Shown here piece after piece: positions 9,924-43,831 of a DNA stretch of 43,879 nt. This DNA is from Candidatus Methylomirabilota bacterium (GTDB lineage Bacteria; Methylomirabilota; Methylomirabilia; Methylomirabilales; 2-02-FULL-66-22). Position 1 is the stretch's first letter, and every line of letters begins with the position of its first letter. The translations under genes were made by a program, and so were the position numbers. Where the stretch lies: contig JACQXP010000106.1 of NCBI GenBank assembly GCA_016208645.1, positions 1 through 43,879 of the forward strand, written 5' to 3'. The notes beneath the pieces were generated by a model. That model was not told where the DNA came from. It searched no databases and was given only the letters and a program-made list of their open reading frames with translations.

Positions 9924-11006
9924 ATGCTGTATCACCTGCTGGTCCCGCTGGCCAAGACGTTCGGGCCGTTCAACGTCTTCCGGTATGTCACGTTCCGGAC
10001 GGCCGGGGCCTTCCTCACGGCCCTGGTCGTGGCCATGATCCTGGGGCGGCCGATCATCCAGAAGCTCTCGACCATGCGCGCCCGGCAGGTGATCCGGGAC
10101 GATGGGCCCCAGACCCACCTGAAGAAGGCCGGCACGCCCACCATGGGCGGCGTCCTGATCCTGCTGGCGGTGGCCTCGGCCACGCTGCTCTGGGCGCAGC
10201 TCACCAACCGGTTCATCTGGCTGGCCCTGCTCAGCATGCTGGCCATGGGGGCGGTGGGTTTCGTGGACGACTACCTGAAGCTCAAGCGGGCCACCAGCAC
10301 GGGCCTCCGCCCGCGGCAGAAGTTCTTCTGGCAGGTCCTGATCGGCCTTCTGGTGGGGGGCTACCTGTACTTGTTTCCCACCGACCAGTTCACGACCAAG
10401 CTGGCGATTCCGTTCCTGAAGCGCTGGCTGCCGGAGCTGGGCCTCTGGTACATCCCCTTCGCCATGGTGGTCCTGGTGGGCTGTTCGAATGCAGTCAACC
10501 TGACGGATGGCCTGGACGGCCTGGCCATCGTCCCCACGCTGATGGCGGCGGCGACTTTCACCCTGTTCGCCTACGTGGCGGGCCACGCCACCATCGCCCG
10601 CTACCTCCAGGTGATCTTCGTGAAGGGGTCGAGTGAGCTGCCCATCTTCGCCGCCGCGCTGGTGGGGGCCAGCCTGGGCTTCCTCTGGTTCAACGCGCAC
10701 CCGGCCCAGGTGTTCATGGGGGACACGGGATCTTTGGCGCTGGGCGGGGCGCTGGCCACCGTCGCCCTGGTGACCAAGAACGAGCTGATCCTGGTGGTGG
10801 CCGGGGGCTGCTTCGTGGTGGAGGCCCTGTCGGTGATCGTCCAGGTGTTCTGGTTCCGGCGGACCGGCCGGCGGATCTTCCGCATGGCGCCCATCCACCA
10901 TCATTACGAGCTGAACGGTCTTCCGGAACCCAAGATCATCGTCCGGTTCTGGATCGTGTCCTTCGTGTTGCAGGTCATCGCGCTGACGACGCTCAAACTG
11001 AGGTGA
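9924..11006 (+). CDS. mraY: phospho-N-acetylmuramoyl-pentapeptide transferase MraY
   Basis: MLYHLL...FNVFRYVTFR...GTPTMGG...NAVNLTDGLDGLA...HHHYEL are canonical MraY motifs. Confidence 0.96.
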   Translation: MLYHLLVPLAKTFGPFNVFRYVTFRTAGAFLTALVVAMILGRPIIQKLSTMRARQVIRDDGPQTHLKKAGTPTMGGVLILLAVASATLLWAQLTNRFIWLALLSMLAMGAVGFVDDYLKLKRATSTGLRPRQKFFWQVLIGLLVGGYLYLFPTDQFTTKLAIPFLKRWLPELGLWYIPFAMVVLVGCSNAVNLTDGLDGLAIVPTLMAAATFTLFAYVAGHATIARYLQVIFVKGSSELPIFAAALVGASLGFLWFNAHPAQVFMGDTGSLALGGALATVALVTKNELILVVAGGCFVVEALSVIVQVFWFRRTGRRIFRMAPIHHHYELNGLPEPKIIVRFWIVSFVLQVIALTTLKLR

Positions 11007-32771: not shown

Positions 32772-33500
32772 GTGGCCCAGCCCGCCCCCGTCCTGCCCCT
32801 GGAGAACCACCAGTCGCTGCGCGAGCGGATCGTCAACCGCCTGCGCCAGGCGATCATCGCGGGGGACCTCCCCCCCAAGACCCGCCTCATGGAACCGGAA
32901 CTCGCCAGGCGACTGGGCGTCAGCCGCACCCCCCTGCGCGAGGCGATCCGCCACCTGGAGGCGGAAGGCCTGCTGGCCGCCGTCCCCCGCGTGGGCACCT
33001 TCGTCACCGAGGTAAGCCCCCGGGACGTGGAGGATACCTACGCCATCCGCGGGGTCCTGGAGGGGCTGGCGGCGCGACAGGCGGCCGAGAATCCCGACCC
33101 CGCCAAGGCCGAGCGGCTCCGGGCCATCCTGGCCGAGTTGGCGCGGAAGACGTCCGACTACCGCTTGTACCACGCGGCGGCCGGGCGGTTCCACGAGGCG
33201 ATCTTTCTCCTCTCGGGGAACCAGCGCCTCCAGGCCATGTACCACTCCCTGACCCATCAGGTCGCCCGGTTCCGCACCCTCTCCCTGGCCGTGCCCCAGC
33301 GCCCGAAGGTGTCCTTCCGGGAGCACCGGCGGATCGCCGAGGCCATCCTGCGCGGTCGGGGGGCGGAGGCGGAGCGACTGATGCGAGCCCATATCGAAGG
33401 CGCGCGGGCAGTCCTCAGGAAGCGCATCACCCCCCAAGAAGGCGGGCTGCGGCCCAGGAGTAGACCCAGGGGGAAATCCACAGCGAGGAAACGAGGATGA
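32772..33500 (+). CDS. GntR-family (FadR/FCD subfamily) transcriptional regulator
   Basis: Winged HTH LMEPELARRLGVSRTPLREAIRHLEAEGLL plus a C-terminal FCD-like helical domain. GTG 32772 has GGAGG 5 nt upstream. ATG 32745 (ORF track) is the alternative. Confidence 0.88.
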   Translation: MAQPAPVLPLENHQSLRERIVNRLRQAIIAGDLPPKTRLMEPELARRLGVSRTPLREAIRHLEAEGLLAAVPRVGTFVTEVSPRDVEDTYAIRGVLEGLAARQAAENPDPAKAERLRAILAELARKTSDYRLYHAAAGRFHEAIFLLSGNQRLQAMYHSLTHQVARFRTLSLAVPQRPKVSFREHRRIAEAILRGRGAEAERLMRAHIEGARAVLRKRITPQEGGLRPRSRPRGKSTARKRG

Positions 33501-34912
33501 GCTCAACACGAGTCGACGCGGACCCCGGATCACTCACTGCCTACGTCGCCGAATTCATCGCCTCCACGCAGTACGCGGATCTCCCGAAGAATGTCGTGCA
33601 GCTTGGAAAGAAGTCCATCCTCGACGGGCTGGGGCTGGCCCTGGCTGGCTCCGTGGCGAAGAGCGGAGAACTTGTCCGTCGACACCTGCAGGGCCTCGGG
33701 AGCGCCAGCGCCGTGGCCAGCGTCATCGGAGCCAGCCTGCGGGTGCCGGCCCGCTTCGCGGCCTTCGCCAACGGCACCGCCATCCATGCGGACGATTATG
33801 ACGACACCCAGTTGGCCGTGGCCAAGGACCGGGTCTACGGCCTGCTCACCCATCCCACGGCCCCGGCCCTGCCGGCGGTGCTGGCGGTGGCAGAGCGAGA
33901 CGGCCGCTCGGGCAAGGACCTGCTGACCGCGTATCACGTCGGCGTAGAAGTGGAGTGCAAGATCGCTGAAGCGATTCACCCGCGGCACTACCAGCACGGG
34001 TTCCACTCCACGGCGACCTGCGGGACGTTCGGCGCGGCGGCCGGGCTGGCCAACCTGTGCGGACTGCCCGCCGAGGTCGCCTGCGTTGCCCTGGGGATCG
34101 CCGGCAGCCTGTCGGCCGGACTCCGGGAGAACTTCGGGACGATGACGAAGCCCCTGCATGCGGGCCGCGCCGCGGAGAGCGGCGTCATCGCGGCGGAGTT
34201 CGCCGCCCTGGGCTTCACGGCGACCCCCACGATCCTGGAGGCGCCCCGGGGGTTCTTCCGGGCCGCGGGCGGGGGCCACGACGAGGGGGCCATTCGAGGG
34301 AGGTTGGGGAACCCCTGGACCTTCGCGAATCCGGGGGTGTCCATCAAGCCGCATCCTTCCGGGTCGCTGACCCACCCCGGCATGACCCTCATGCTCTCGC
34401 TCATCACGCAACATGAGATTCGACCCAACCAAGTTGAGCGCGTGAGGGTCGGCACCAACCAGAACATGCCCAATGCCCTCATCCATCACCGGCCCAGGAC
34501 GGAACTCCAGGCGAAGTTCAGCATGGAGTTCTGCATGGCCATCCTGCTCCTGGAGCAGAAGGCCGGACTGCCCGAGTTCACCGATGAAGTCGTCAACCGG
34601 CCGGACGTGCAGGCGATGATCCAGAAGGTGGACTTCGGCGTCCATCCCGACGCCGAGGCCGCCGGCTATGACAAGATGACGACGATCATCGAGATCACGC
34701 TCACGGGCGGGCGAACGATTTCCGGTCGCGCCGATTTCGGCAAGGGCAGCCCGGCGAATCCGATGAGCTACGAGGAGGTGGCGGACAAGTTCCGGGGGTG
34801 TGCCGCCTTCAGCCGGTGGCCGTCGGACAAGACAGAACGGGTCATCAACTTGGTCAAGCGGCTGGAGGACCTTCCTGACGTGCGGGAGCTGACCGCGCTG
34901 CTCTCGCGCTAG
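33497..34912 (+). CDS. MmgE/PrpD-family protein (2-methylcitrate-dehydratase-like fold, substrate unknown)
   Basis: About 470 aa. N-terminal ...YVAEFIASTQYADLPKNVVQLGKKSILDGLGLALAGS and HPSGSLTHPGM are typical of the family. The ATG overlaps the gntR stop (ATGA). Confidence 0.88.
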   Translation: MSSTRVDADPGSLTAYVAEFIASTQYADLPKNVVQLGKKSILDGLGLALAGSVAKSGELVRRHLQGLGSASAVASVIGASLRVPARFAAFANGTAIHADDYDDTQLAVAKDRVYGLLTHPTAPALPAVLAVAERDGRSGKDLLTAYHVGVEVECKIAEAIHPRHYQHGFHSTATCGTFGAAAGLANLCGLPAEVACVALGIAGSLSAGLRENFGTMTKPLHAGRAAESGVIAAEFAALGFTATPTILEAPRGFFRAAGGGHDEGAIRGRLGNPWTFANPGVSIKPHPSGSLTHPGMTLMLSLITQHEIRPNQVERVRVGTNQNMPNALIHHRPRTELQAKFSMEFCMAILLLEQKAGLPEFTDEVVNRPDVQAMIQKVDFGVHPDAEAAGYDKMTTIIEITLTGGRTISGRADFGKGSPANPMSYEEVADKFRGCAAFSRWPSDKTERVINLVKRLEDLPDVRELTALLSR

Positions 34913-35032: not shown

Positions 35033-36007
35033 ATGAGAACGCATTGGAGGCTGAGTGTTGCGATCCTGATCGCGGTGGGCCTGACCATGGGCCTGGGGAA
35101 CGTGGGCGAAGCCGCGAAGTTCCCGGAGAAGCCGATTACCCTGGTGGTCCACGCCTCGGCGGGTGGGGGCAGTGACATCTTCGCCCGAACGCTGGCAGCC
35201 GCCTTCGAGAAGGAGAAACTGGTCCCCCAGCCGATCGTCGTGGAGAACAAGCCGGGCGGCAGCGGCGCCATCGCCTTTGCCTACGTCGGGGGCAAGAAGA
35301 AAGACCCCTACTACCTCCTCACGGCCGTGACCAGCTTCCTGACCACGCCCATCCTCAGGAAGTCACAAGTCACCTACAAGGATTTCACCCCGATCGCCAA
35401 TTTCGCCTTTGACGAGTACGTGGTGATCGTCCGGGCCGAGTCGAAGTACAAGTCCATGAAGGACATCGTGAGCGACGCCAAGGCCAATCCCAAGAGGATC
35501 ACCGTGGGGGGGACCCAACTGGGCTCGTCCGACTCGATCTGCGCGTACCTCATCGAGAAGGCGGCGGGGGTCCAGTTGAACTACATCGTGTTCAACAGCG
35601 GCGGGGAGGTCAATGCGGCCCTCATGGGCGGGCACATTGACATCGCCGTTGCCAACCCGGGCGAAGCCCTGGAGCTGGCGAAAGCGAACAAGGTGCGGAC
35701 GCTCGGCGTCTTTTCGGAGAAGCGACTCGCCGGGGCCCCCGATGTCCCCACCCTGAAGGAGCAAGGGCTCAACGCCGTCTACGTGCAGAATCGGGGACTC
35801 GTGGCTCCGGCCGAGATCCCCGAGGAGGCGCGCAAGGTGCTGGAGGAGGCGCTCCTGAAATACACGAAGACCGACGTCTTCAAGAAATACGTCAAGGAGA
35901 ACATGCTCTCCGAGGCCTGGATGGACGGCTCGACCTTTGGCAAGTGGCTGGACGGGGAACATGCCCGGTATCAGGAAGTGCTCAAGGCGATGGGCCTGTT
36001 GAAATAG
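35033..36007 (+). CDS. tctC: tripartite tricarboxylate transporter substrate-binding protein (TctC/Bug family)
   Basis: Signal peptide, then FPEKPITLVVHASAGGGSDIFAR...ENKPGGSGAIA, a Bug-family signature. ATG 35033 follows GGGAGGAGG. Confidence 0.9.
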   Translation: MRTHWRLSVAILIAVGLTMGLGNVGEAAKFPEKPITLVVHASAGGGSDIFARTLAAAFEKEKLVPQPIVVENKPGGSGAIAFAYVGGKKKDPYYLLTAVTSFLTTPILRKSQVTYKDFTPIANFAFDEYVVIVRAESKYKSMKDIVSDAKANPKRITVGGTQLGSSDSICAYLIEKAAGVQLNYIVFNSGGEVNAALMGGHIDIAVANPGEALELAKANKVRTLGVFSEKRLAGAPDVPTLKEQGLNAVYVQNRGLVAPAEIPEEARKVLEEALLKYTKTDVFKKYVKENMLSEAWMDGSTFGKWLDGEHARYQEVLKAMGLLK

Positions 36008-36100
36008 CCACGAGGCCAAACCGGGCGGAGCGCGCGACGGCTGCTCCGCCCGGCCCGCTGTGCGCTTCGGCCTCCCCGTAGAGGAAAGGCAGGTCCGGCG

Positions 36101-36559
36101 ATGCGACGGGCCGACCAGGTCACCGGCATCATCGTCTTGGTGTTCTCGCTCACCCTCATGGAAGGGTCCCGACGCCTGCCCCCCAGCGCCACATTCGGGC
36201 CGGGGGCCGGGTTCCTGCCCTTCTGGCTCGGGGCGCTCATGGCCGTTCTTTCCGCCCTGCTGCTGGTCAAGGCCTGCCTCCAGCCGGTGGCTTCGGCGGA
36301 CACGGCCCTCTTTCCGAATCGCCGGGTGCTGATTCCGGTGGGGGCAACCATCGGGAGCCTGGCCGCCTATATTCTCGTGCTGGACCGGCTTGGCTTCCTG
36401 CTCGGCACGGGGCTCCTCACCGCGTTCCTGCTCGGCGTCGTGGAGCGCGAACGGTGGTTCACGACCGTACTGGTGGCCGTGCTGAATGCCGTTGGGCTGT
36501 ATGTCGTGTTCCACCTGTTGTTGGGCGTGAGCCTTCCGAAGAGTGTCCTTGGTTTTTAG
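36101..36559 (+). CDS. tctB: tripartite tricarboxylate transporter small membrane subunit TctB
   Basis: 152 aa with 4 TM helices, located between tctC and tctA. Confidence 0.8.
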   Translation: MRRADQVTGIIVLVFSLTLMEGSRRLPPSATFGPGAGFLPFWLGALMAVLSALLLVKACLQPVASADTALFPNRRVLIPVGATIGSLAAYILVLDRLGFLLGTGLLTAFLLGVVERERWFTTVLVAVLNAVGLYVVFHLLLGVSLPKSVLGF

Positions 36560-36670
36560 GGCAGCCATGCGCCTTTCGCGGGCTTCCGTTTCGCACGCGA
36601 TCGCAGGCTGACGATACTGCACCGCAGCTCCATCGGTAAATTCGCCGCGCTGCGGGTGGGAAGAAATCCG

Positions 36671-38185
36671 ATGGATGTCTTCCAGAACATTCTGATGGGC
36701 TTTCGGGTGGCCCTCTCATTCCAGAATCTCCTCTTCTGCTTCGTGGGCGTCACGCTGGGCACCCTGATCGGCGTGCTGCCGGGCATCGGACCGGTCACCG
36801 GCGTGGCGATCCTCATCCCCATCACGTTCGGCCTGAATCCCACCACGGCGATCATCACCATGGCCGGGGTCTACTATGGGGCCATGTACGGCGGGTCCAC
36901 CACGTCCATTCTCATCAACGTCCCGGGCGAATCGTCGTCGGTCATGACCACCCTGGACGGCTACCAGATGGCCCGGAAGGGACGGGCCGGCCCCGCCCTG
37001 GGCATGGCCGCCTTCTCGTCCTTCATGGCGGGAACCCTTGCCGTGGTCCTGCTCACCTTCATCGCCCCTCCATTGGCCAGCGTCGCCCTCTCCTTCGGGC
37101 CGCCGGAGTATTTCGCCTTGACCTTCATGGGGTTGACCCTGGTGACCAGCCTGTCCGGGCAGTCCATGCTCAAGGGCATCATGAGCGGCGTCTTCGGCCT
37201 GATCGTGGCCTGTGTGGGCCTCGACGCCATCAGCGGCGAGGAGCGATTCACGTTCGGCAACATCTACCTGCTGGACGGGATGGGCTTCATCGGGGTGGCG
37301 GTGGGGCTCTTTGCCGTGGCCGAGGTGCTGGTCAACTTGGAAGAGCCGATGGAACAGGTGTTCGTCCAGACCGCGCTCAGCCTGCGGACCCTGTTCCCGA
37401 ACCTGCAGGACTGGAAGGATTCGCTGGGACCCATCGGGCGAAGCTCTCTGCTGGGTTTTTTCATCGGCGTCCTGCCGGGGGCAGGGGCGACCATCGCCTC
37501 CTTCATGTCGTATGCGATGGAGAAGAAGCTCAGCAAACACCCGGAGAAGTTCGGTACCGGGATCATCCAGGGCGTGGCCGCGCCGGAAGGCGCCAACAAT
37601 GCCGCCGCCGGAGGGGCGATGGTCCCGCTCCTGACCCTGGGCATCCCCGGCTCGGGGACCACGGCCGTGCTCTTGGGCGCGCTCCTCATCCATGGGCTGC
37701 GACCGGGTCCTCTGCTGTTCCAGAACAACCCCGATTTCGTCTGGGGCGTGATCGCCAGCATGTACATCGGCAACGTCTTGCTGCTCGTCCTGAATCTCCC
37801 GTTGGTCGGGATCTGGGCCAGCATGTTGCGCGTCCCCTACCGGATCCTCATGCCTCTCATCGTGACGATCTCCGCCGTGGGCGTGTTCGCCACGGACAAC
37901 AATATCTTCGACATGTGGGTCATGTTCGCCTTCGGCATCATCGGGTACCTGATGCGCAAGCTCGAGTTTCCGGCCGCACCGGCGGTGCTGGGCCTGGTGC
38001 TGGGCCCCCTGGTGGAACGATCGCTTCGCCAGTCGCTGACCATATCGCACGGCGACCTGTCCATTTTCTTCACGCGTCCGATCTCTGCGCTGCTGACGAT
38101 CTGCGCCCTGCTGTCGCTCTTCGCCCCTGTCGTTCGCGCCGTCTGGCAGTCGCGCAGGATGTCACCGATGGAGATGAAACCGTAA
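36671..38185 (+). CDS. tctA: tripartite tricarboxylate transporter large permease TctA
   Basis: About 504-aa polytopic protein with GTLIGVLPGIGP, GAMYGGSTTSILINVPGE and GVLPGAGATIASF. Confidence 0.93.
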   Translation: MDVFQNILMGFRVALSFQNLLFCFVGVTLGTLIGVLPGIGPVTGVAILIPITFGLNPTTAIITMAGVYYGAMYGGSTTSILINVPGESSSVMTTLDGYQMARKGRAGPALGMAAFSSFMAGTLAVVLLTFIAPPLASVALSFGPPEYFALTFMGLTLVTSLSGQSMLKGIMSGVFGLIVACVGLDAISGEERFTFGNIYLLDGMGFIGVAVGLFAVAEVLVNLEEPMEQVFVQTALSLRTLFPNLQDWKDSLGPIGRSSLLGFFIGVLPGAGATIASFMSYAMEKKLSKHPEKFGTGIIQGVAAPEGANNAAAGGAMVPLLTLGIPGSGTTAVLLGALLIHGLRPGPLLFQNNPDFVWGVIASMYIGNVLLLVLNLPLVGIWASMLRVPYRILMPLIVTISAVGVFATDNNIFDMWVMFAFGIIGYLMRKLEFPAAPAVLGLVLGPLVERSLRQSLTISHGDLSIFFTRPISALLTICALLSLFAPVVRAVWQSRRMSPMEMKP

Positions 38186-38394: not shown

Positions 38395-39369
38395 ATGCAG
38401 ATTGCCGGGATCATCGGAGGCGCACGCAAGGTCGTCCGCATCCTCGCGCGGGTCAGGGAAGGGGAGAAGGTCCTGATCGCGGCCGACACCGACACCCCCG
38501 TGGTCGCCGAGGCGCTGGCGACGGCCGCGCTGGAGATCACCCCCGAGGTGGTGACCACGATGATGACGCCCCGGGCCGTGGATGGCGACGAGCCGCCGGC
38601 CGTCGTGGCGGCGGCCCTCCTGGCGGCCGAGGTGGCGCTCATACCCGTGAGCTACTCGATCAGCCACTCGACGGCCGTCCACACCGCGCTCACGCACGGG
38701 ACCCGAGTCCTGTCGCTGCCGGCCACCACCCCCGACCAGCTCGTCCGGGGAGGCGCCGAGGCGGACTTCGAGGCGGCGTCGCCCATCGTGCGGAAGATGG
38801 GCGAGCGCCTGTCCGCGGCCTCCGCGGCGCATCTCACGACGCCGGCGGGCACCGACTGCACCTTCGACCTCCGCGGGCGCTCCGGGAACGCGCACGACTG
38901 CATCCTGGATCGCCCCGGCAAGTTCTCGGCCTTTCCCAATATCGAGGCCAACATCTCTCCCGTGGATGGAACGGCCGAGGGGGTGATCGTCTTCGACGGC
39001 AGCATTCCCAACCTTCGCCTGGGCCGCTTGCGCGATCCGGTGAGGTGCACGGTGAAGAAGGGGAATATCGTGAAGGTCGAGGGCGGCCCCGAGGCCGACA
39101 TGATCCGAAAGGTGTGGGCCGGGATGAAGGATTCGGCGGTGTACAACATCGCGCAGCTGGCCATCGGCCTGAACCCCGCCATCCCCATGCTCACCGGTGT
39201 GTGGGCCCAGGACCATGGCGCCTTTGGCACCGTGCACATCGGCATCGGGACCAGCGCCAATCTCGGTGGAACGACGAAGGCGGCCTGCCACTTCGACGGC
39301 ATGATGTACCGCCCGACACTGACGCTGGACGGTCGTGCGGTCCTGGAGGGTGGAGAGCTGCGAATCTAG
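38395..39369 (+). CDS. M29 aminopeptidase-T-fold / NicX-like metalloenzyme (function unknown)
   Basis: About 324 aa. By recollection the C-terminal half (...GVIVFDGSI...VKKGNIVKVEGG...IAQLAIGLNP...HIGIGTS...CHFDG...) is colinear with the 2,5-dihydroxypyridine dioxygenase / aminopeptidase T family. Confidence 0.65.
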   Translation: MQIAGIIGGARKVVRILARVREGEKVLIAADTDTPVVAEALATAALEITPEVVTTMMTPRAVDGDEPPAVVAAALLAAEVALIPVSYSISHSTAVHTALTHGTRVLSLPATTPDQLVRGGAEADFEAASPIVRKMGERLSAASAAHLTTPAGTDCTFDLRGRSGNAHDCILDRPGKFSAFPNIEANISPVDGTAEGVIVFDGSIPNLRLGRLRDPVRCTVKKGNIVKVEGGPEADMIRKVWAGMKDSAVYNIAQLAIGLNPAIPMLTGVWAQDHGAFGTVHIGIGTSANLGGTTKAACHFDGMMYRPTLTLDGRAVLEGGELRI

Positions 39370-39426: not shown

Positions 39427-40275
39427 ATGCACATTGACCCGCGGAAATGCGTGGCCTGCGGGAACTGCCTGGCCGTGTGCCCCGTCAGCGCCATTTACAT
39501 TGATTCGGTGATCCGCCGCGCGACGGTCAACCTGGACGAGTGCGTGGAGTGCTACGCCTGCCACAACCGCATGAGCAAGGAGGACCTGAACCCTACCCTG
39601 GTCCGGACCATCCGGGGATTCTTCAAGCTGCTCCGGATCCGCTTCGACCCGGAGCCGGACGTGTGCCCCACCTCCGCCTTCGCGCCCCAGAAGCTGGCGT
39701 GGCCCCGCAGCATCCGCCAGGCCTTCAGCGATCCCTGCGTCCCGCACGAGAGCACGGGGGTCTACGGCCGCGGGACGGAGGAGGTCAAGACCAACGACGT
39801 CACGAACCGCGTGGGACCCGGCGAGGTGGGGTTCACCGTCGAGTTCGGGCGACCGGCGGTGGGGGCCCGGTTCCGGGAGGTGCAGGCGGTGACCATGGCC
39901 CTGGCCCGGATCGGCGCCACCTTCGAGAAGAACAACCCGGTCACGGCGCTGATGCCGGATCCGACGACCGGGGCCATCAACCCGGAGATCCTGGACGAGA
40001 AGGTGCTCTCCGCCATCGTCGAGGTGAAGACGCCGGAGGCGCTGCTGCCGGCCGTCCTCCGCACGGTGGAGGAGGTGTCGGCCACCCTGAACACCGTGGT
40101 CAGCGTGGGGGTGGCGGTCCGCTGCGACGGCGACGGCGAAAACCGCGTGGAGAAGGCGCTGGCCGGCGAAGGCTACCCGGTGTTCCGCGGCAAGACGAAC
40201 CTGGGATTGGGCCGCCTCACGAACCCGGAGGCCCAGGCCAAGACAGCCGGGGCGGCCGCCCCGGCCGGGCGATAA
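39427..40275 (+). CDS. uncharacterised ferredoxin-fusion protein, copy 1 (module gene A1)
   Basis: CVACGNCLAVCP (CxxCxxCxxxCP), then CVECYAC with the fourth Cys-Pro (DVCP) 34 residues later. A ~200-aa C-terminal domain follows (HESTG.YGRGTEEVKTNDVT...KTNLGLGR) that I cannot assign. ATG 39427 follows GGAGAAAGGAG. Confidence 0.8.
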   Translation: MHIDPRKCVACGNCLAVCPVSAIYIDSVIRRATVNLDECVECYACHNRMSKEDLNPTLVRTIRGFFKLLRIRFDPEPDVCPTSAFAPQKLAWPRSIRQAFSDPCVPHESTGVYGRGTEEVKTNDVTNRVGPGEVGFTVEFGRPAVGARFREVQAVTMALARIGATFEKNNPVTALMPDPTTGAINPEILDEKVLSAIVEVKTPEALLPAVLRTVEEVSATLNTVVSVGVAVRCDGDGENRVEKALAGEGYPVFRGKTNLGLGRLTNPEAQAKTAGAAAPAGR

Positions 40276-40300
40276 CCCCGATGTCTGACGGGAGCAGACG

Positions 40301-40981
40301 ATGACCAACACCCTTCACCGCTATGGGCCTCCGGAAAGCTTCCGGGACGACTTCATCGTCTTCATCCGGAACTCCAATGGGCGGAACGACGTCGGCTCCA
40401 TTCCGAAGCTCAAGGAGTTCCTGCGCACGGCGCTGCGGCACCGGCCGGTGACGATCTCGCAGTACCGGTTCGGCTCGACCGTCCGGCCGGCGGATCACCT
40501 GAACCCGCGCATCCACTGGACGCGGCCGGTCCAGGACCTGACGGCGGAGCAGATCATCGAGGCCATCACCAAGGATCACACCGTGGGGGCCATCTTCGAC
40601 TCGGAAGCGGCCATGGAGGCCTTCCTGCGGGAGGTCAAGGCGGCCGACTGGGGTCTCTCGGTGAACGTGGCCGGCCTCACGGCCCCGGTGCACGCCTGCG
40701 CCAAGCGGGCCGGCATCGTCCGGCACAGCGTGGAATACTCGCTAGGCTTCCAGGGGGCGCTGGACCGGCTGCCGGAGCGGCCGGTGCTGGAGCTGTCCAC
40801 CATGTGCGGCCACAGCATGCTGTCGCCGAACCTGGCGCGCAAGATGCTCGAGTGGGTCCGCGAGGGGCGCCGCACGCCCGAGCAGGCGGCCGCCTACCTG
40901 GGCCGGTTCTGCTCCTGCGGGATCTTCAACCCCGCCCGCGCGGTGCGCCTGCTGGAGGCGGCCCAAGGGGGGAACGGGTAG
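40301..40981 (+). CDS. uncharacterised Cys-rich protein, copy 1 (module gene B1)
   Basis: 226 aa with MTNTLHRYG..., RHSVEYSLGF, LELSTMCGH and FCSCGIFN. All four blocks are conserved in the paralog at 41978. Starts 25 nt after A1. Confidence 0.8.
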   Translation: MTNTLHRYGPPESFRDDFIVFIRNSNGRNDVGSIPKLKEFLRTALRHRPVTISQYRFGSTVRPADHLNPRIHWTRPVQDLTAEQIIEAITKDHTVGAIFDSEAAMEAFLREVKAADWGLSVNVAGLTAPVHACAKRAGIVRHSVEYSLGFQGALDRLPERPVLELSTMCGHSMLSPNLARKMLEWVREGRRTPEQAAAYLGRFCSCGIFNPARAVRLLEAAQGGNG

Positions 40982-40987
40982 CCCGTG

Positions 40988-41015
40988 CCTGCCCGGCCGG
41001 GGCAGGGAAGATTTT
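40988..41015 (+). terminator. weak terminator-like hairpin after B1
   Basis: CCTGCCC / GGGCAGG 7-bp stem with a 5-nt loop. The TTTT run begins 5 nt after the stem. Confidence 0.3.
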
Positions 41016-41025
41016 CGGGCCGCGC

Positions 41026-41055
41026 TTGACAGAGCGTCCGTAAGAGTGGTAGACA
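41026..41055 (+). promoter_or_regulatory. candidate internal promoter (TTGACA-N18-TAGACA), twin of 32713-32742
   Basis: CGCTTGACAGAG (41023-41034) and GGTAGACA (41048-41055) are identical to the gntR promoter core. An AT-rich leader with three CGAAAA repeats follows. Confidence 0.45.
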
Positions 41056-41138
41056 CAACGAAAATCTCGAAAAGTTTTTTCACGATACGAAAACCCTGGG
41101 GTCCCCGGCGGACCGGCCCGAACGCAGCGGAGGCTGTT

Positions 41139-41951
41139 ATGCAGATAGACCACGGCAAGTGCGTGGCGTGCAGCAACTGTATTCCCGTGTGCCCGATGGG
41201 CGCCATCTATATTGACCCGGCCGTGAACCGGGCGACCGTGAATCTGGACGAGTGCGTGGAGTGCTTCACCTGCTATCGGGGGATGAGCAAGGAACACCTG
41301 AACCCGACCCTGGTGCGGACGATCCGGGGTGTTTTGAAATACCTCCGGATCCGCTTCGACCCCGAGCCGGACGTGTGCCCGACGGACGCCCTCACCCCCC
41401 AGGCGCTCACCTGGCCCCGCATCGTGCGCCAGGCCTTCAGCGATCCTTTGGTCCCGCACGAGTCCACGGGGATCCACGGCCGGGGCACGGAAGAGGTGAA
41501 GACCAACGACGTGACCGGCCGGGTGAACGAGGGCGAGGCGGGCTTCACCATCGAGTTCGGGCGGCCCGGGGTGGGGGTCCGGTTCCGGGACATCCAGAAG
41601 ATGACCATGGCCCTGGCCCCGCTGCCGATCACCTTTGAGAAGAAGAATCCGGTGTTCAGCCTGATGAGCGACCCCGCCACCGGAACCATCCGCGAGGACA
41701 TCCTGAACGAGAAGGTCCTCTCCGCCATCGTGGAGCTGAAGACGGCGCTGGAGCACGTGCCGCAGGTCCTCCAGGTGGTGGAGGAGGTCGCCCAGGATCT
41801 GGAGACCATCCTGTCCATCGGGGTGGCCACGCGCTGCGATGGCCAGGGGGACAACGCCCTGGAGCCGATGCTCAAGCGTGAAGGCCACGAGTTCTACCGC
41901 GGAAAGACCAACCTGGGCCTGGGCCGGCGGCCGGCAGCCGTCTCCGCCTGA
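41139..41951 (+). CDS. uncharacterised ferredoxin-fusion protein, copy 2 (module gene A2)
   Basis: Colinear with A1 at roughly two-thirds identity by eye: CVACSNCIPVCP, CVECFTC...DVCP, HESTGIHGRGTEEVKTNDVT, KTNLGLGR. ATG 41139 follows GCGGAGG. Confidence 0.8.
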   Translation: MQIDHGKCVACSNCIPVCPMGAIYIDPAVNRATVNLDECVECFTCYRGMSKEHLNPTLVRTIRGVLKYLRIRFDPEPDVCPTDALTPQALTWPRIVRQAFSDPLVPHESTGIHGRGTEEVKTNDVTGRVNEGEAGFTIEFGRPGVGVRFRDIQKMTMALAPLPITFEKKNPVFSLMSDPATGTIREDILNEKVLSAIVELKTALEHVPQVLQVVEEVAQDLETILSIGVATRCDGQGDNALEPMLKREGHEFYRGKTNLGLGRRPAAVSA

Positions 41952-41977
41952 CCCGGCCCGCAGAGGAGCGATACGCC

Positions 41978-42699
41978 ATGACCAACACGCTGCACCGGTT
42001 CGGGAGCCGGGACAGCCTTCGGGACGACTACATCATCTTCGCCATGGCGGCCCGGGGGATCAACGACCAGGGGGCCCCGCCGAAGCTGCAGACCTTCCTC
42101 CGCCTGGCGTTGAGACACCATCCCATCAACGTCGGCAACGCCGTCAAGGGGGGGATCTTCCGGGCCTCGAAAGCCCTCACCCCCCTGGCCCACTGGCGCC
42201 GCCGGGAGTTCATTGCCCCCGAGGAGGTCGTCGAGAGCGTGGACACCTGCACCACGGTCTCCGCGGTCTTCGACGATCCCGCGAACCTGGAGGCCTTCCT
42301 GACCGAGCTGAAGGCGGCCGACCTGGGCATCTCCATCAACATCGCCGCCCTCACGGACGAGGCCCGGACGTGCTGCCAGCGGGCCGGGATCACCCGCCAC
42401 AGCGTCGAGTATTCCCTGGGGTTCCACGGGGACCTGAACCGGCTGCCGGACCGCCACGTCCTCGAACTCTCCACCATGTGCGGCCACGGGATGGTCGCCC
42501 ACAACCTGGCCAAGAAGATGCTGGATTGGGTCAAGGAGGGGCGCCGGGATCCCCGGCAAGCCGCCACCTACCTCGCCAAATTCTGCACCTGCGGCATTTA
42601 CAATACGACCCCACCTACCTCGCCAAATTCTGCACCTGCGGCATTTACAATACGACCCGGGCCATCCGCGTCCTCGAGGAAGCGCGGGTGGGGAAGTAG
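41978..42699 (+). pseudogene. module gene B2, frameshifted by a 47-nt tandem duplication (or assembly artefact)
   Basis: Colinear with B1 up to ...YLAKFCTCGIYNTT (42610). The proper C-terminus RAIRVLEEARVGK* (42658-42699) is in another frame. Deleting one 47-nt copy restores a 224-aa ORF. Confidence 0.8.
42564..42657 (+). repeat. exact 47-nt tandem duplication (2 copies)
   Basis: CCACCTACCTCGCCAAATTCTGCACCTGCGGCATTTACAATACGACC occurs at 42564-42610 and again at 42611-42657. Confidence 0.97.
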
Positions 42700-42826
42700 G
42701 AACGCCGTCCCCGCCGGGCGTCCGGTCCCCCAGATCCCGAGGGAGGCGAGGAGGGGAACGGGCGCGGCAGCCGTGGGGACGGTTGCCTTTGCGGCTGCAA
42801 CCTGTGTACAGAGAGGAGGGGGCAGA

Positions 42827-43831
42827 ATGCGTGCTGTGGGAGGCGTGGGCAGGCTTTTCCGCTGGGGGGGCATCCTGGCGCTCGGGCTCGTCCTCGTGGG
42901 GATCACGGGGGGGCAAGCCTGGGCTGCCACGGTCATCCGGCTCGGCCACGTGGCCTTTCCGGGCTCGCTCTTCGACATCGTGACCACCAGGTACGCCAAG
43001 GAGGTGAACGAGGCCCTCAAGGGCCGGGTGGAGATCAAGGTCTTCCACTCGAGCCAGCTTGGCACCGATGAACAGATGATCAAGGGGATCAAGGTCGGCG
43101 CCCCCGAGATGTTCATCCCGTCCACCATCATGAGCACGGTGGACCAGCGGTACGGCGTCTTCGAGATGCCCTACATCATCGTCAATCGTGCCCACATGAA
43201 ACGGGTGACGGAGCACGCCCAGGTTCAGAAGGCCCGCTTCGAGGGGCTCCCGGCCAAGGGGATACGGCTCCTCGGGGTGTGGGAGCACGGCTTCCGCCAC
43301 ATCACCAACACCGTCCGGCCCATCGTGAAGCCCGACGACTTGAAAGGAATCAAGCTTCGGGTGCCCGGCGGCATCTGGCGGGTCAAGATGTTCAAGGCGT
43401 ATGGGGCCAACCCATCGCCCATGCCCTTCGCCGAGGTCTACTCGGCCCTTCAGTCCGGCGTGATGGATGCGCAGGAGAACCCCTTCCCGCAGATCTGGTC
43501 GGCCAAGTTCCACGAGGTTCAGAAGTACCTCTCCCTGACCGGCCACGTCTATTCCCCCGCCTACCTGGTGGTGGGCGAGGAGTTCTGGCAGAAGCTCCCC
43601 AAGGATGTCCAGGCGACGATTGCCAAGATCTCCTGGGGGATGGGGGACTTTGCCCGTTCGGAGGGCGAGCGGTTGGACAAGGAACTGATGGCGAAACTGG
43701 CCCCCCCGATGAAGGCCAACGAGGTGGACAAGGAGGCCTTCATCAAGGCGTCGGCGGCCATCTATGAGGAGTTCGGCACGCAGGTGGCTGGGGCCGCCGA
43801 ACTGATCAAGCTGTTCCAGTCGCTCCGGTAG
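42827..43831 (+). CDS. dctP: TRAP transporter substrate-binding protein (DctP family)
   Basis: Signal peptide (GILALGLVLVGITGGQAWA), then IRLGHV..., EVNEALKGRVEIKVFHSSQLG, FEMPYI, LRVPG and ENPF, which are DctP-family patterns. ATG 42827 follows GAGAGGAGGGGG. It appears as the tail of the 617-aa ORF only because of the upstream frameshift. Confidence 0.9.
   Translation: MRAVGGVGRLFRWGGILALGLVLVGITGGQAWAATVIRLGHVAFPGSLFDIVTTRYAKEVNEALKGRVEIKVFHSSQLGTDEQMIKGIKVGAPEMFIPSTIMSTVDQRYGVFEMPYIIVNRAHMKRVTEHAQVQKARFEGLPAKGIRLLGVWEHGFRHITNTVRPIVKPDDLKGIKLRVPGGIWRVKMFKAYGANPSPMPFAEVYSALQSGVMDAQENPFPQIWSAKFHEVQKYLSLTGHVYSPAYLVVGEEFWQKLPKDVQATIAKISWGMGDFARSEGERLDKELMAKLAPPMKANEVDKEAFIKASAAIYEEFGTQVAGAAELIKLFQSLR

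Follow-up and report, generated by a model that had tools for sequence, protein, structure and literature searches.

We analysed a contig of 43,879 nucleotides from a Candidatus Methylomirabilota bacterium (JACQXP010000106.1; "the window" below means this whole stretch). Towards its 3′ end the forward strand carries four consecutive genes that form two paralogous pairs, A1-B1-A2-B2. Protein A starts with a ferredoxin that would hold two [4Fe-4S] clusters and continues into a larger domain; protein B carries conserved cysteines and histidines. An earlier note on this DNA, made from the letters and the open reading frames (ORFs) alone, had described the four genes as a module of iron-sulfur (Fe-S) or Cys-rich proteins that it could not assign to any family, and had suggested that they encode a redox enzyme whose substrate is an organic acid taken up by the cell. 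Here we ask how far the relatives of A and B, their conserved residues and their gene neighbourhoods bear this out.

The family is large. Relatives fall into 4293 (B) and 6112 (A) clusters at 90% identity, those of B form 861 clusters at 50% identity (E < 1e-3), and among GTDB species-representative genomes at least 570 stretches were confirmed to hold a B relative. The family is carried by Methylomirabilota, by many Acidobacteriota and by Acidimicrobiia, Desulfuromonadaceae and Eremiobacterota, among others, and a shorter subgroup is found in Dehalococcoidia (Chloroflexota), in Negativicutes including the cultured Sporomusa termitida, in other Bacillota and in Desulfobacteraceae. The pair is often present in several paralogous copies per genome.

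The two genes travel together. Of 95 loci reached via B, only a handful do not have A immediately 5′ of it on the same strand, and the stop codon of A overlaps the start codon of B by 4 nt in 43 of the 76 cases measured. A random sample of the family, drawn by scanning a metagenome collection with a degenerate DNA motif (120 hits, 117 of them true B genes), gives A 5′ of B wherever the contig extends that far, and searches that start from two A proteins find a B gene directly 3′ in both. The exceptions are three loci in which A is 2-6 kb from B, and two more that we take up when weighing the interpretation. Co-occurrence, on which the earlier note had staked its proposal, is thus near absolute over about 200 loci in several phyla. 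Judging by the genes, the adjacency, the order and the translational coupling of A and B are those that subunits of one heteromeric enzyme would have.

In A1, the Pfam matches are confined to the N-terminal ferredoxin, residues ~1-50 (Fer4_10 at 37.0 bits for a cutoff of 25.5, Fer4 at 35.3 for 21.1, and Fer4_7 at 31.2 for 27; Fer4_10 and Fer4 match residues 1-47), and A2 is similar. The first cluster motif is canonical (C8, C11, C14, C18-P19). The second is split just as the earlier note had read it, with C39-x2-C42-x2-C45 followed by 34 residues and then C80-P81. To measure conservation we use 85 diverse A proteins, 35-65% identical to A1, and list positions that are at least 90% conserved. 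The stretch between C45 and C80 is the mark of a subfamily, present in 23 of the 85 (~29 extra residues); relatives that do not have the insert (those of loci L096 and L098, for instance) have C-x5-C in the second motif. All eight ferredoxin Cys are 100% conserved. The ferredoxin part is less than one fifth of the A+B mass, and the conservation extends well into the C-terminal domain: P93, R94, R97 and S101; a block of G114, R115, G116, T117, E119, K121, T122, N123 and R128 (GRGTEEVKTNDVT.R in A1); G141, R142 and P143; N170 and P171; E191, S195 and E199; and K256, N258, G260, L261 and G262. The C-terminal domain has in all ~30 invariant polar or Gly positions, while C233 (34%) and H107 (78%) are less conserved.

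For B, the sample is 112 diverse proteins that are 27-50% identical to B1. Conserved in 85-98% of them are M1, T2, L5, H6, R7, G9, D17, G118, S120, H142, S147, G149, G152, M168, C169, G170, H171, C204, C206, G207, N210 and R213. The candidate metal ligands among these, C169, C204 and C206 together with H6, H142 and H171, are about 93-96% conserved, or 93-100% with R7 included; the motif MCGH holds C169 and H171, and FCxCG..N holds C204 and C206. Four conserved Cys plus a His, as proposed from the two copies in the window, are indeed shared by B1 and B2, but the family-wide set is Cys3/His3, with position 133 a Cys in just 42%. Residues 1-9 (40301-40327 in B1 and 41978-42004 in B2), M-T-x-T-L-H-R-x-G, are among the best conserved even at ~30% identity. 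Such conservation suggests that the N-terminus of B itself, with Thr2 (once Met is removed), His6 and Arg7, forms part of an active or metal site. Every conserved block quoted in the earlier note lies in columns that are invariant when the homologues are aligned.

None of this conservation leads to a described family. We searched Pfam-A (a 2025 copy and a newer precomputed set), NCBIfam (June 2026) and PDB (2026). Four diverse sequences of the A C-terminal domain, searched at E up to 10, have no Pfam match at E < 0.09, and the NCBIfam and PDB matches of A cover the ferredoxin part alone, with none in the C-terminal domain. Scanning A1, A2 and the four domain sequences with PADLOC likewise added nothing to the ferredoxin. 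For B there is nothing above threshold in Pfam, NCBIfam or PADLOC (B1, B2 and 63 diverse members), the precomputed Pfam is blank for all homologues, and PDB gives no significant match to either the sequence or two profiles (phmmer/hmmsearch, best E 0.16). Pfam finds neither Fer4_20 nor Pyr_redox_2 in A1, A2, B1 or B2, and neither CCG (PF02754) nor LUD (PF02589) in A or B. A tblastn search of a plasmid collection with B1 and the A C-terminal domain gave no match. In public records, relatives are named "ferredoxin", "4Fe-4S binding protein" or "hypothetical protein". The A C-terminal domain was also considered as a paralog of B, and this was rejected (hhalign probability 0.1%).

Predicted structures give a similar answer. 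The AlphaFold2 model of B1 (predicted local distance difference test, pLDDT, 81) places a ferredoxin-like alpha+beta domain at the N-terminus and the Cys motifs in a helical part at the C-terminus, and its best Foldseek matches in PDB (best E 1.6e-2) are generic ferredoxin-like alpha+beta folds (MupZ/NDK). The model of A is confident solely in a beta-alpha-beta-beta-alpha-beta unit, residues 130-250; Foldseek again returns generic ferredoxin-like folds (PII/CutA/ZipA, best E 7e-3) for this model, whose low confidence outside that unit leaves these matches with little meaning. The word "unassignable" in the earlier note therefore still applies to the A C-terminal domain and to B after Pfam-A, NCBIfam, PDB and Foldseek against PDB. 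About 400 of the ~500 residues of A+B fall in no described family or solved fold.

How did the window come to have two pairs? A1 and A2 are 68% identical over 263 aa (E 2e-136), and B1 and B2 55% over 210 aa (E 1e-87), close to the two-thirds and one half that had been estimated by eye. In a neighbour-joining tree of B, B2 lies within an ordinary Methylomirabilota clade, with 67-83% identity to its members, and B1 forms a separate long branch, 50-58% identical to all else, with one other B1-type gene. That gene is found in locus L007 of another metagenome-assembled genome (MAG), where it stands alone behind a major facilitator superfamily (MFS) gene and a TPR/rotamase gene. Because B1 and B2 fall in separate branches, the pairs are not a recent local copy; the tree rules out a recent tandem duplication in situ, and by their sequences the two pairs are best described as old paralogs side by side, not sister copies. 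Of the old duplication with both copies retained that had been proposed, the age stands and the tandem sister relation does not. Retention is supported: against the counterparts in L009, a locus ~93% identical to this one, the ratio of nonsynonymous to synonymous substitution rates (dN/dS) is 0.15 for A1, 0.16 for B1 and 0.10 for A2, and it remains within 0.05-0.16 once B2 is included in the repaired form described below. Purifying selection acts on all four genes. Each pair also adjoins its own importer, one 5′ of A1-B1 and one 3′ of A2-B2, and the two pairs probably serve two different but related substrates. Tandem A-B-A-B arrangements are also seen in two unrelated metagenomic contigs (L113 3451-6304 and L174 3069-5898), and Methylomirabilota MAGs hold several unlinked paralogous pairs (L022/L026, L017/L059).

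B2 is the one gene of the four that is not intact in the window. A 47-bp unit, CCACCTACCTCGCCAAATTCTGCACCTGCGGCATTTACAATACGACC, is perfectly duplicated in tandem (Tandem Repeats Finder, TRF: period 47, 2.0 copies, 100% match), and the duplication falls exactly on the motif FCTCGIYN. The frame shifts after ...KFCTCGIYNTT, and the ORF as written, 41978-43831 (617 codons), extends into the DctP gene, whose frame it happens to share. The genuine C-terminus of B2, RAIRVLEEARVGK followed by a stop, is in another frame and ends at 42699. Removing one copy of the unit restores a 224-aa B2 close to P0111, a protein from an NC10 MAG that is encoded at the position of B2 in the same locus of related contigs. 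The unit is single in all seven contigs that share the locus, each of which encodes an intact 224-aa B2, and dN/dS is lower for the repaired B2 (0.047) than for the other three window genes. We conclude from these two observations that the duplication arose either very recently, as a lesion, or in assembly, as an artefact of a contig join. An unmerged 47-bp exact overlap at a contig join would yield exactly such a duplication. The earlier description of the module thus holds for four consecutive paralogous genes on the + strand, and for a B1 of 226 aa, but not for B2 as an intact ORF of ~225 aa.

Table 1. Genes and other features around the two A-B pairs (positions in the window).
Feature	Position	Strand	Remarks
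GntR/FCD regulator	32772-33500	+	heads the locus
PrpD/MmgE-family protein	33497-34912	+	follows the GntR/FCD gene
TctC	35033-36007	+	TTT importer; Pfam TctC on the ~93% identical locus L009
TctB	36101-36559	+	TTT importer; Pfam TctB on L009
TctA	36671-38185	+	TTT importer; Pfam TctA on L009
NicX/M29-like protein	38395-39369	+	immediately 5′ of A1; Peptidase_M29 26.4 bits, cutoff 27
A1	39427-40275	+	282 aa; ferredoxin N-terminus and a ~200-aa domain outside any family
B1	40301-40981	+	226 aa; outside any family; motifs MTNTLHR.G, MCGH, FCxCG..N
B1-A2 spacer	40982-41138	+	157 bp
A2	41139-41951	+	270 aa; A1 paralog; GGAGG 5 nt 5′ of the ATG
B2	41978-42699	+	B1 paralog; frame-shifted by the 47-bp duplication
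47-bp tandem duplication	42564-42658	+	TRF; inside B2
DctP-family TRAP solute-binding protein	42827-43831	+	TIGR00787, 228 bits

The surroundings of the module (Table 1), from the GntR regulator through PrpD/MmgE, TctC, TctB, TctA and the NicX/M29-like gene to DctP, are as the earlier note had given them. TctC, TctB and TctA (35033..38185, + strand) make up a tripartite tricarboxylate (TTT) importer. PF26233 NicX is annotated on the L009 counterpart of the NicX/M29-like gene. DctP is the solute-binding protein of a tripartite ATP-independent periplasmic (TRAP) transporter, and DctQ and DctM come after it in the contigs that share the locus. The same gene order is found in seven contigs at ~93% nucleotide identity, some of them from NC10 (Methylomirabilota) MAGs, and a 2.9-kb contig of a Methylomirabilota groundwater MAG is 96.5% identical to the locus. 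The spacer between B1 and A2 is relatively AT-rich in comparison with its ~67% GC surroundings. Reading the sequence, we see in it a GC hairpin (cctgccc-ggcc-ggggcagg), a short T run and then a TTGACA hexamer; a consensus scan for promoters and terminators called nothing in this spacer. It may be the boundary of two transcription units, with a terminator and a promoter. A search for RNA elements that could name a ligand found no riboswitch or known RNA 5′ of A1 or A2. GC content across positions 1-32000 of the window is 0.63-0.73.

Neighbours were counted in two samples, 82 non-redundant GTDB loci and 55 randomly sampled metagenome loci of at least 5 kb. Importers recur in both. An MFS transporter of the anion:cation symporter (ACS) type, whose best NCBIfam match is TIGR00893 (D-galactonate transporter, E 1e-82), lies directly 5′ of A in 33 of the 82, and a TTT, TRAP or ACS-MFS importer is present in 23 of the 55, with a GntR/FCD regulator in 8. 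The arrangement A-B-DctPQM is shared by the window, by L098 (SDR-A′-B′-DctPQM, with a 2-oxoacid:ferredoxin oxidoreductase nearby) and by L224, where a class-V aminotransferase precedes A. In Sporomusa termitida, TctBA/PdxA is divergent from a sigma-54 activator, and A′-B′-TctC and a PanB-like gene follow; the pair is at CP036259 ~129,175-130,526. With importers and GntR regulators so close, A-B might be a redox or metabolite sensor, or a factor for metal or Fe-S delivery, that controls the adjacent transporter and does not metabolise what it imports, and the C-terminal helical part of B does give weak matches to winged-helix-like domains (FeoC at E 0.009 in 5 of 63 members, SHOCT-like in 7 of 63). 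None of these matches reaches a threshold, and they are inconsistent; A-B has no domain for DNA binding or signalling, some pairs exist without any transporter, and the partner flavoproteins described next point to sustained electron flow. We consider a sensor or delivery role highly improbable.

A second group of neighbours consists of redox proteins. Pyr_redox_2, Fer4_11 or a small Prismane/CO-dehydrogenase-family protein is present in 8 of the 55 loci, and in two cases the association has gone as far as fusion. One fusion joins B to a C-terminal Fer4_11 polyferredoxin (P0272/P0393, 411 aa; L095 937-2172 and L096 3824-5059), with separate Fer4_11 and Pyr_redox_2 genes 5′ of A′; L096 reads Fer4_11, Pyr_redox_2, A′, B′::Fer4_11. 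The other (L171 8814-10940, − strand, 708 aa) combines Pyr_redox_2, Fer4_20 (domain II of dihydropyrimidine dehydrogenase, DPD), 2x[4Fe-4S] and the A C-terminal domain, and a B gene follows it. Five loci of anaerobe type (L107, L110, L122, L193 and L208) carry the pair with Pyr_redox_2, a CooF-like Fer4_11 protein and a Prismane/CO-dehydrogenase-family protein of ~437 aa; loci of this type sometimes have a class-V aminotransferase. In Dehalococcoidia (L102) the order is aldehyde:ferredoxin oxidoreductase, A′, B′, LutA-like, LutB-like, LarA, PPDK and two GlcD-like genes. A pyrroloquinoline quinone (PQQ)-dependent dehydrogenase with a cytochrome c domain lies directly 5′ of B in L039 and L041, and this dehydrogenase lies just 5′ of a normal A-B pair in five related loci.

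Such company raises the question of whether A-B is itself an enzyme. It could do no more than carry electrons to or from the redox enzymes next to it, as a specialised ferredoxin that has an accessory subunit, and not be catalytic itself. The ferredoxin is the sole recognisable domain, the Dehalococcoidia pair stands directly after the aldehyde:ferredoxin oxidoreductase and before the LutA/LutB-like genes, and several anaerobe loci have the Pyr_redox_2, Fer4_11 and small Prismane/CO-dehydrogenase-family genes just mentioned. But most loci (MFS-A-B, A-B-DctPQM or A-B alone) have no other redox enzyme adjacent, and the ~400 residues outside the ferredoxin, with their enzyme-like invariant polar positions, go far beyond what a carrier needs. 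We regard a pure carrier role as unlikely.

The same partners bear on a different kind of enzyme, a redox-neutral Fe-S (de)hydratase or lyase of the aconitase/serine-dehydratase type, in which a [4Fe-4S] cluster on the three Cys of B would bind a hydroxy acid and the clusters of A would have a structural or regulatory role. Exactly three Cys of B are invariant across the family, and genes for hydroxy- or oxo-acid metabolism do occur nearby (HIBADH family, 2-Hacid_dh, AP_endonuc_2, LutAB, LarA, HpcH and class-V aminotransferase). For an enzyme without net redox chemistry, however, fusions and partners that feed in electrons from NAD(P)H and FAD make little sense, and all eight ferredoxin Cys are invariant. 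This makes a dehydratase or lyase quite improbable.

The third group of neighbours is hydrolytic or dehydrogenating. A PF01979 amidohydrolase lies directly 3′ of B in 16 of the 82 GTDB loci, in 8 of the 82 together with the MFS gene (Acidimicrobiia included), and is present in 11 of the 55 metagenome loci, in both subfamilies; L225, for example, reads AP_endonuc_2, A, B, amidohydrolase, cupin. A beta-hydroxyacid dehydrogenase of the HIBADH family is present in 4 of the 55. One may then imagine A-B as a ring reductase for an N-heterocyclic or unsaturated carboxylate (or as an enoate reductase), with the downstream amidohydrolase opening the product. Besides the amidohydrolase and the HIBADH-family dehydrogenase, the NicX-like gene that adjoins A1 would fit, and the L171 fusion mirrors the NAD(P)H-FAD-Fer4_20-2x[4Fe-4S] wire of the DPD/GltD type. 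Several observations stand in the way. The amidohydrolase is lacking in most loci. Where present, it is closest in PDB to the Arg carboxypeptidases 3BE7 and 3MTW (Arg-carboxypeptidase/prolidase type), and enamidase (PDB 2VUN) is not among its 24 PDB matches at E < 1e-5, so we rejected an enamidase-like identity. The HIBADH-family neighbour was likewise rejected as Hgd-like, being generic, with tartronate semialdehyde reductase as its top match. IMG names the relatives only "ferredoxin" (A) and "hypothetical" (B), and no A-B fusion was found in the 117 sampled loci. We put the probability of a ring reductase low because the amidohydrolase is Arg-carboxypeptidase-like, the dehydrogenase is generic, and the likeness to 6-hydroxynicotinate reductase, taken up below, is by description only. 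As for the NicX-like gene, it is adjacent in this lineage alone and is not among the recurrent neighbours; we rejected it as a general partner.

What remains, and what we favour with slightly more confidence than doubt, is that A and B together make up a single two-subunit Fe-S oxidoreductase, whose substrate is a small organic anion or carboxylate that the cell imports. This reading draws on the obligatory pairing and frequent translational coupling, on the invariant eight-Cys ferredoxin, on the polar positions that are invariant, as in an enzyme, throughout the other ~400 residues, on the NAD(P)H-FAD and polyferredoxin modules that are fused or adjacent to the pair, and on the three unrelated classes of carboxylate importer and the carboxylate-responsive regulators that recur beside it. 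Purifying selection on the four window genes is in its favour too. The redox enzyme on an imported organic acid that the earlier note had suggested is supported in this way by importers that recur in unrelated lineages, by NAD(P)H-flavoprotein and polyferredoxin partners, and by the two fusions.

By inference from these features, A and B would form a physical complex, B would contain metal, the complex would be catalytic and its class of substrate can be outlined, as follows. The enzyme would sit in the cytoplasm and receive its organic anion from the adjoining importer. The two [4Fe-4S] clusters of the N-terminal domain of A would act as an electron wire to or from a soluble carrier such as ferredoxin; in some relatives the carrier would be an FAD protein that depends on NAD(P)H and has additional Fe-S domains, either fused or from an adjacent gene. 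The catalytic site would be built jointly by the A C-terminal domain and B, and the organic anion would be reduced or oxidised there. The conserved basic and acidic residues of the A C-terminal domain could suit an anionic substrate or a cofactor, and the Cys3 (C169, C204, C206) and His (H6, H142, H171) centre of B is most likely an Fe-S cluster, one with an iron that is open or bound by His. The neighbours point loosely to C2-C6 hydroxy-, oxo- or amino-/amido-carboxylates, and not to any one compound.

A number of points weigh against this reading. The pair is known here from genes and predicted models, and the AlphaFold2 model of A is poor (mean pLDDT 62, with residues 85-125 below 50). No cofactor-binding family is recognisable in A or B, and the Cys3/His centre of B could equally be a structural Zn site. 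About 40% of the loci of at least 5 kb have none of the recurrent neighbours, some pairs lie amid housekeeping genes (NUDIX, radical SAM and PhoU in L001), and the neighbour sets are heterogeneous and imply no single substrate. Finally, in two Acidobacteriota loci (L039 and L041; B at 10001-10678) there is no A within 10 kb of B.

If A-B is one Fe-S oxidoreductase, is it also a new one? Possibly, though this is a doubtful step further, A-B is the core of an unrecognised class of Fe-S enzyme that uses ferredoxin or NAD(P)H to drive the reduction, or the reductive C-O or C-N cleavage, of a common small carboxylate. Its active site would combine the Arg/Lys/Glu-rich domain of A with the Cys3/His3 centre of B and its N-terminus MT.TLHR, in folds without a characterised relative. 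If this were true, the pair would supply a missing step in the turnover of organic acids or N-heterocycles in soils and sediments, carried by many soil Acidobacteriota and Methylomirabilota and by anaerobes (Dehalococcoidia, Negativicutes). Naming the reaction of A-B would give a function to thousands of genes now called "hypothetical", and could expose an Fe-S-dependent step in organic-acid metabolism in abundant, mostly uncultured bacteria of soil and groundwater. With its adjoining solute-binding proteins and with Sporomusa termitida as a cultured carrier, the pair lends itself to experiment.

Among known systems, the plainest likeness is to the bacterial 2x[4Fe-4S] ferredoxins (Fer4/Fer4_10/Fer4_7), which residues 1-50 and C80-P81 of A match with eight invariant Cys; the subfamily of A1 and A2 differs in its second motif, C45-x34-C80 instead of C-x5-C. 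Dihydropyrimidine dehydrogenase (PreT/PreA) and GltD-type proteins share the domain order of the L171 fusion and resemble the arrangement with separate Pyr_redox_2 and Fer4_11 partner genes. An amidohydrolase often comes after A-B, just as dihydropyrimidinase comes after DPD in the logic of a reductase followed by a hydrolase. Unlike DPD, A-B has no DHODH-like FMN barrel, and its A C-terminal domain and B have no detectable relation to that enzyme. The window genes also have no flavoprotein module of the GltD/DPD type; one is found just in the L171 fusion and in neighbour genes.

The pathway of Eubacterium barkeri runs through 6-hydroxynicotinate reductase (EC 1.3.7.1), enamidase and 2-(hydroxymethyl)glutarate dehydrogenase. 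The reductase is said to be ferredoxin-dependent and to have a subunit of ~53 kDa with a covalently bound flavin, one [2Fe-2S] cluster and two [4Fe-4S] clusters, and its gene is reportedly followed in the operon by those for an amidohydrolase and a HIBADH-family dehydrogenase. Going by this reported description only, the clusters are alike and the ~53 kDa subunit is close to A+B in size. A single polypeptide with a covalent flavin is nevertheless different from an A-B gene pair, and the amidohydrolase beside A-B is not enamidase-like. Homologues of the reductase are found in aerobic soil Bradyrhizobiaceae, e.g. ZP_08628994.1 (PMC3511419), where the importer is an ABC transporter (PMC3511419), whereas TTT, TRAP and MFS importers stand beside A-B. 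A link to this enzyme could be the main route by which the pair would turn out to be already characterised.

LutABC/GlcF-type proteins resemble A-B as Fe-S proteins that have no obvious organic cofactor and are tied to the use of small hydroxy acids, and LutA-/LutB-like genes stand directly 3′ of A′-B′ in the Dehalococcoidia locus L102. They differ in that A and B have another Cys pattern and neither a CCG nor a LUD domain; these two domains are seen only in the genes that neighbour the pair in L102. The three Cys and nearby His of B recall enzymes and proteins with three-Cys or Cys3His centres (IspH/IspG, aconitase-type dehydratases, 4-hydroxybutyryl-CoA dehydratase and mitoNEET), but the PDB and Foldseek searches find no similarity of sequence or fold between these and B. 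IspG and IspH likewise depend on ferredoxin or flavodoxin as the electron source for their chemistry, which takes place at a unique iron. A ferredoxin-wired Fe-S enzyme beside a solute importer is already familiar; the proposed catalytic parts of A-B lie outside Pfam-A, NCBIfam and PDB, although they are very widely distributed and strongly conserved.

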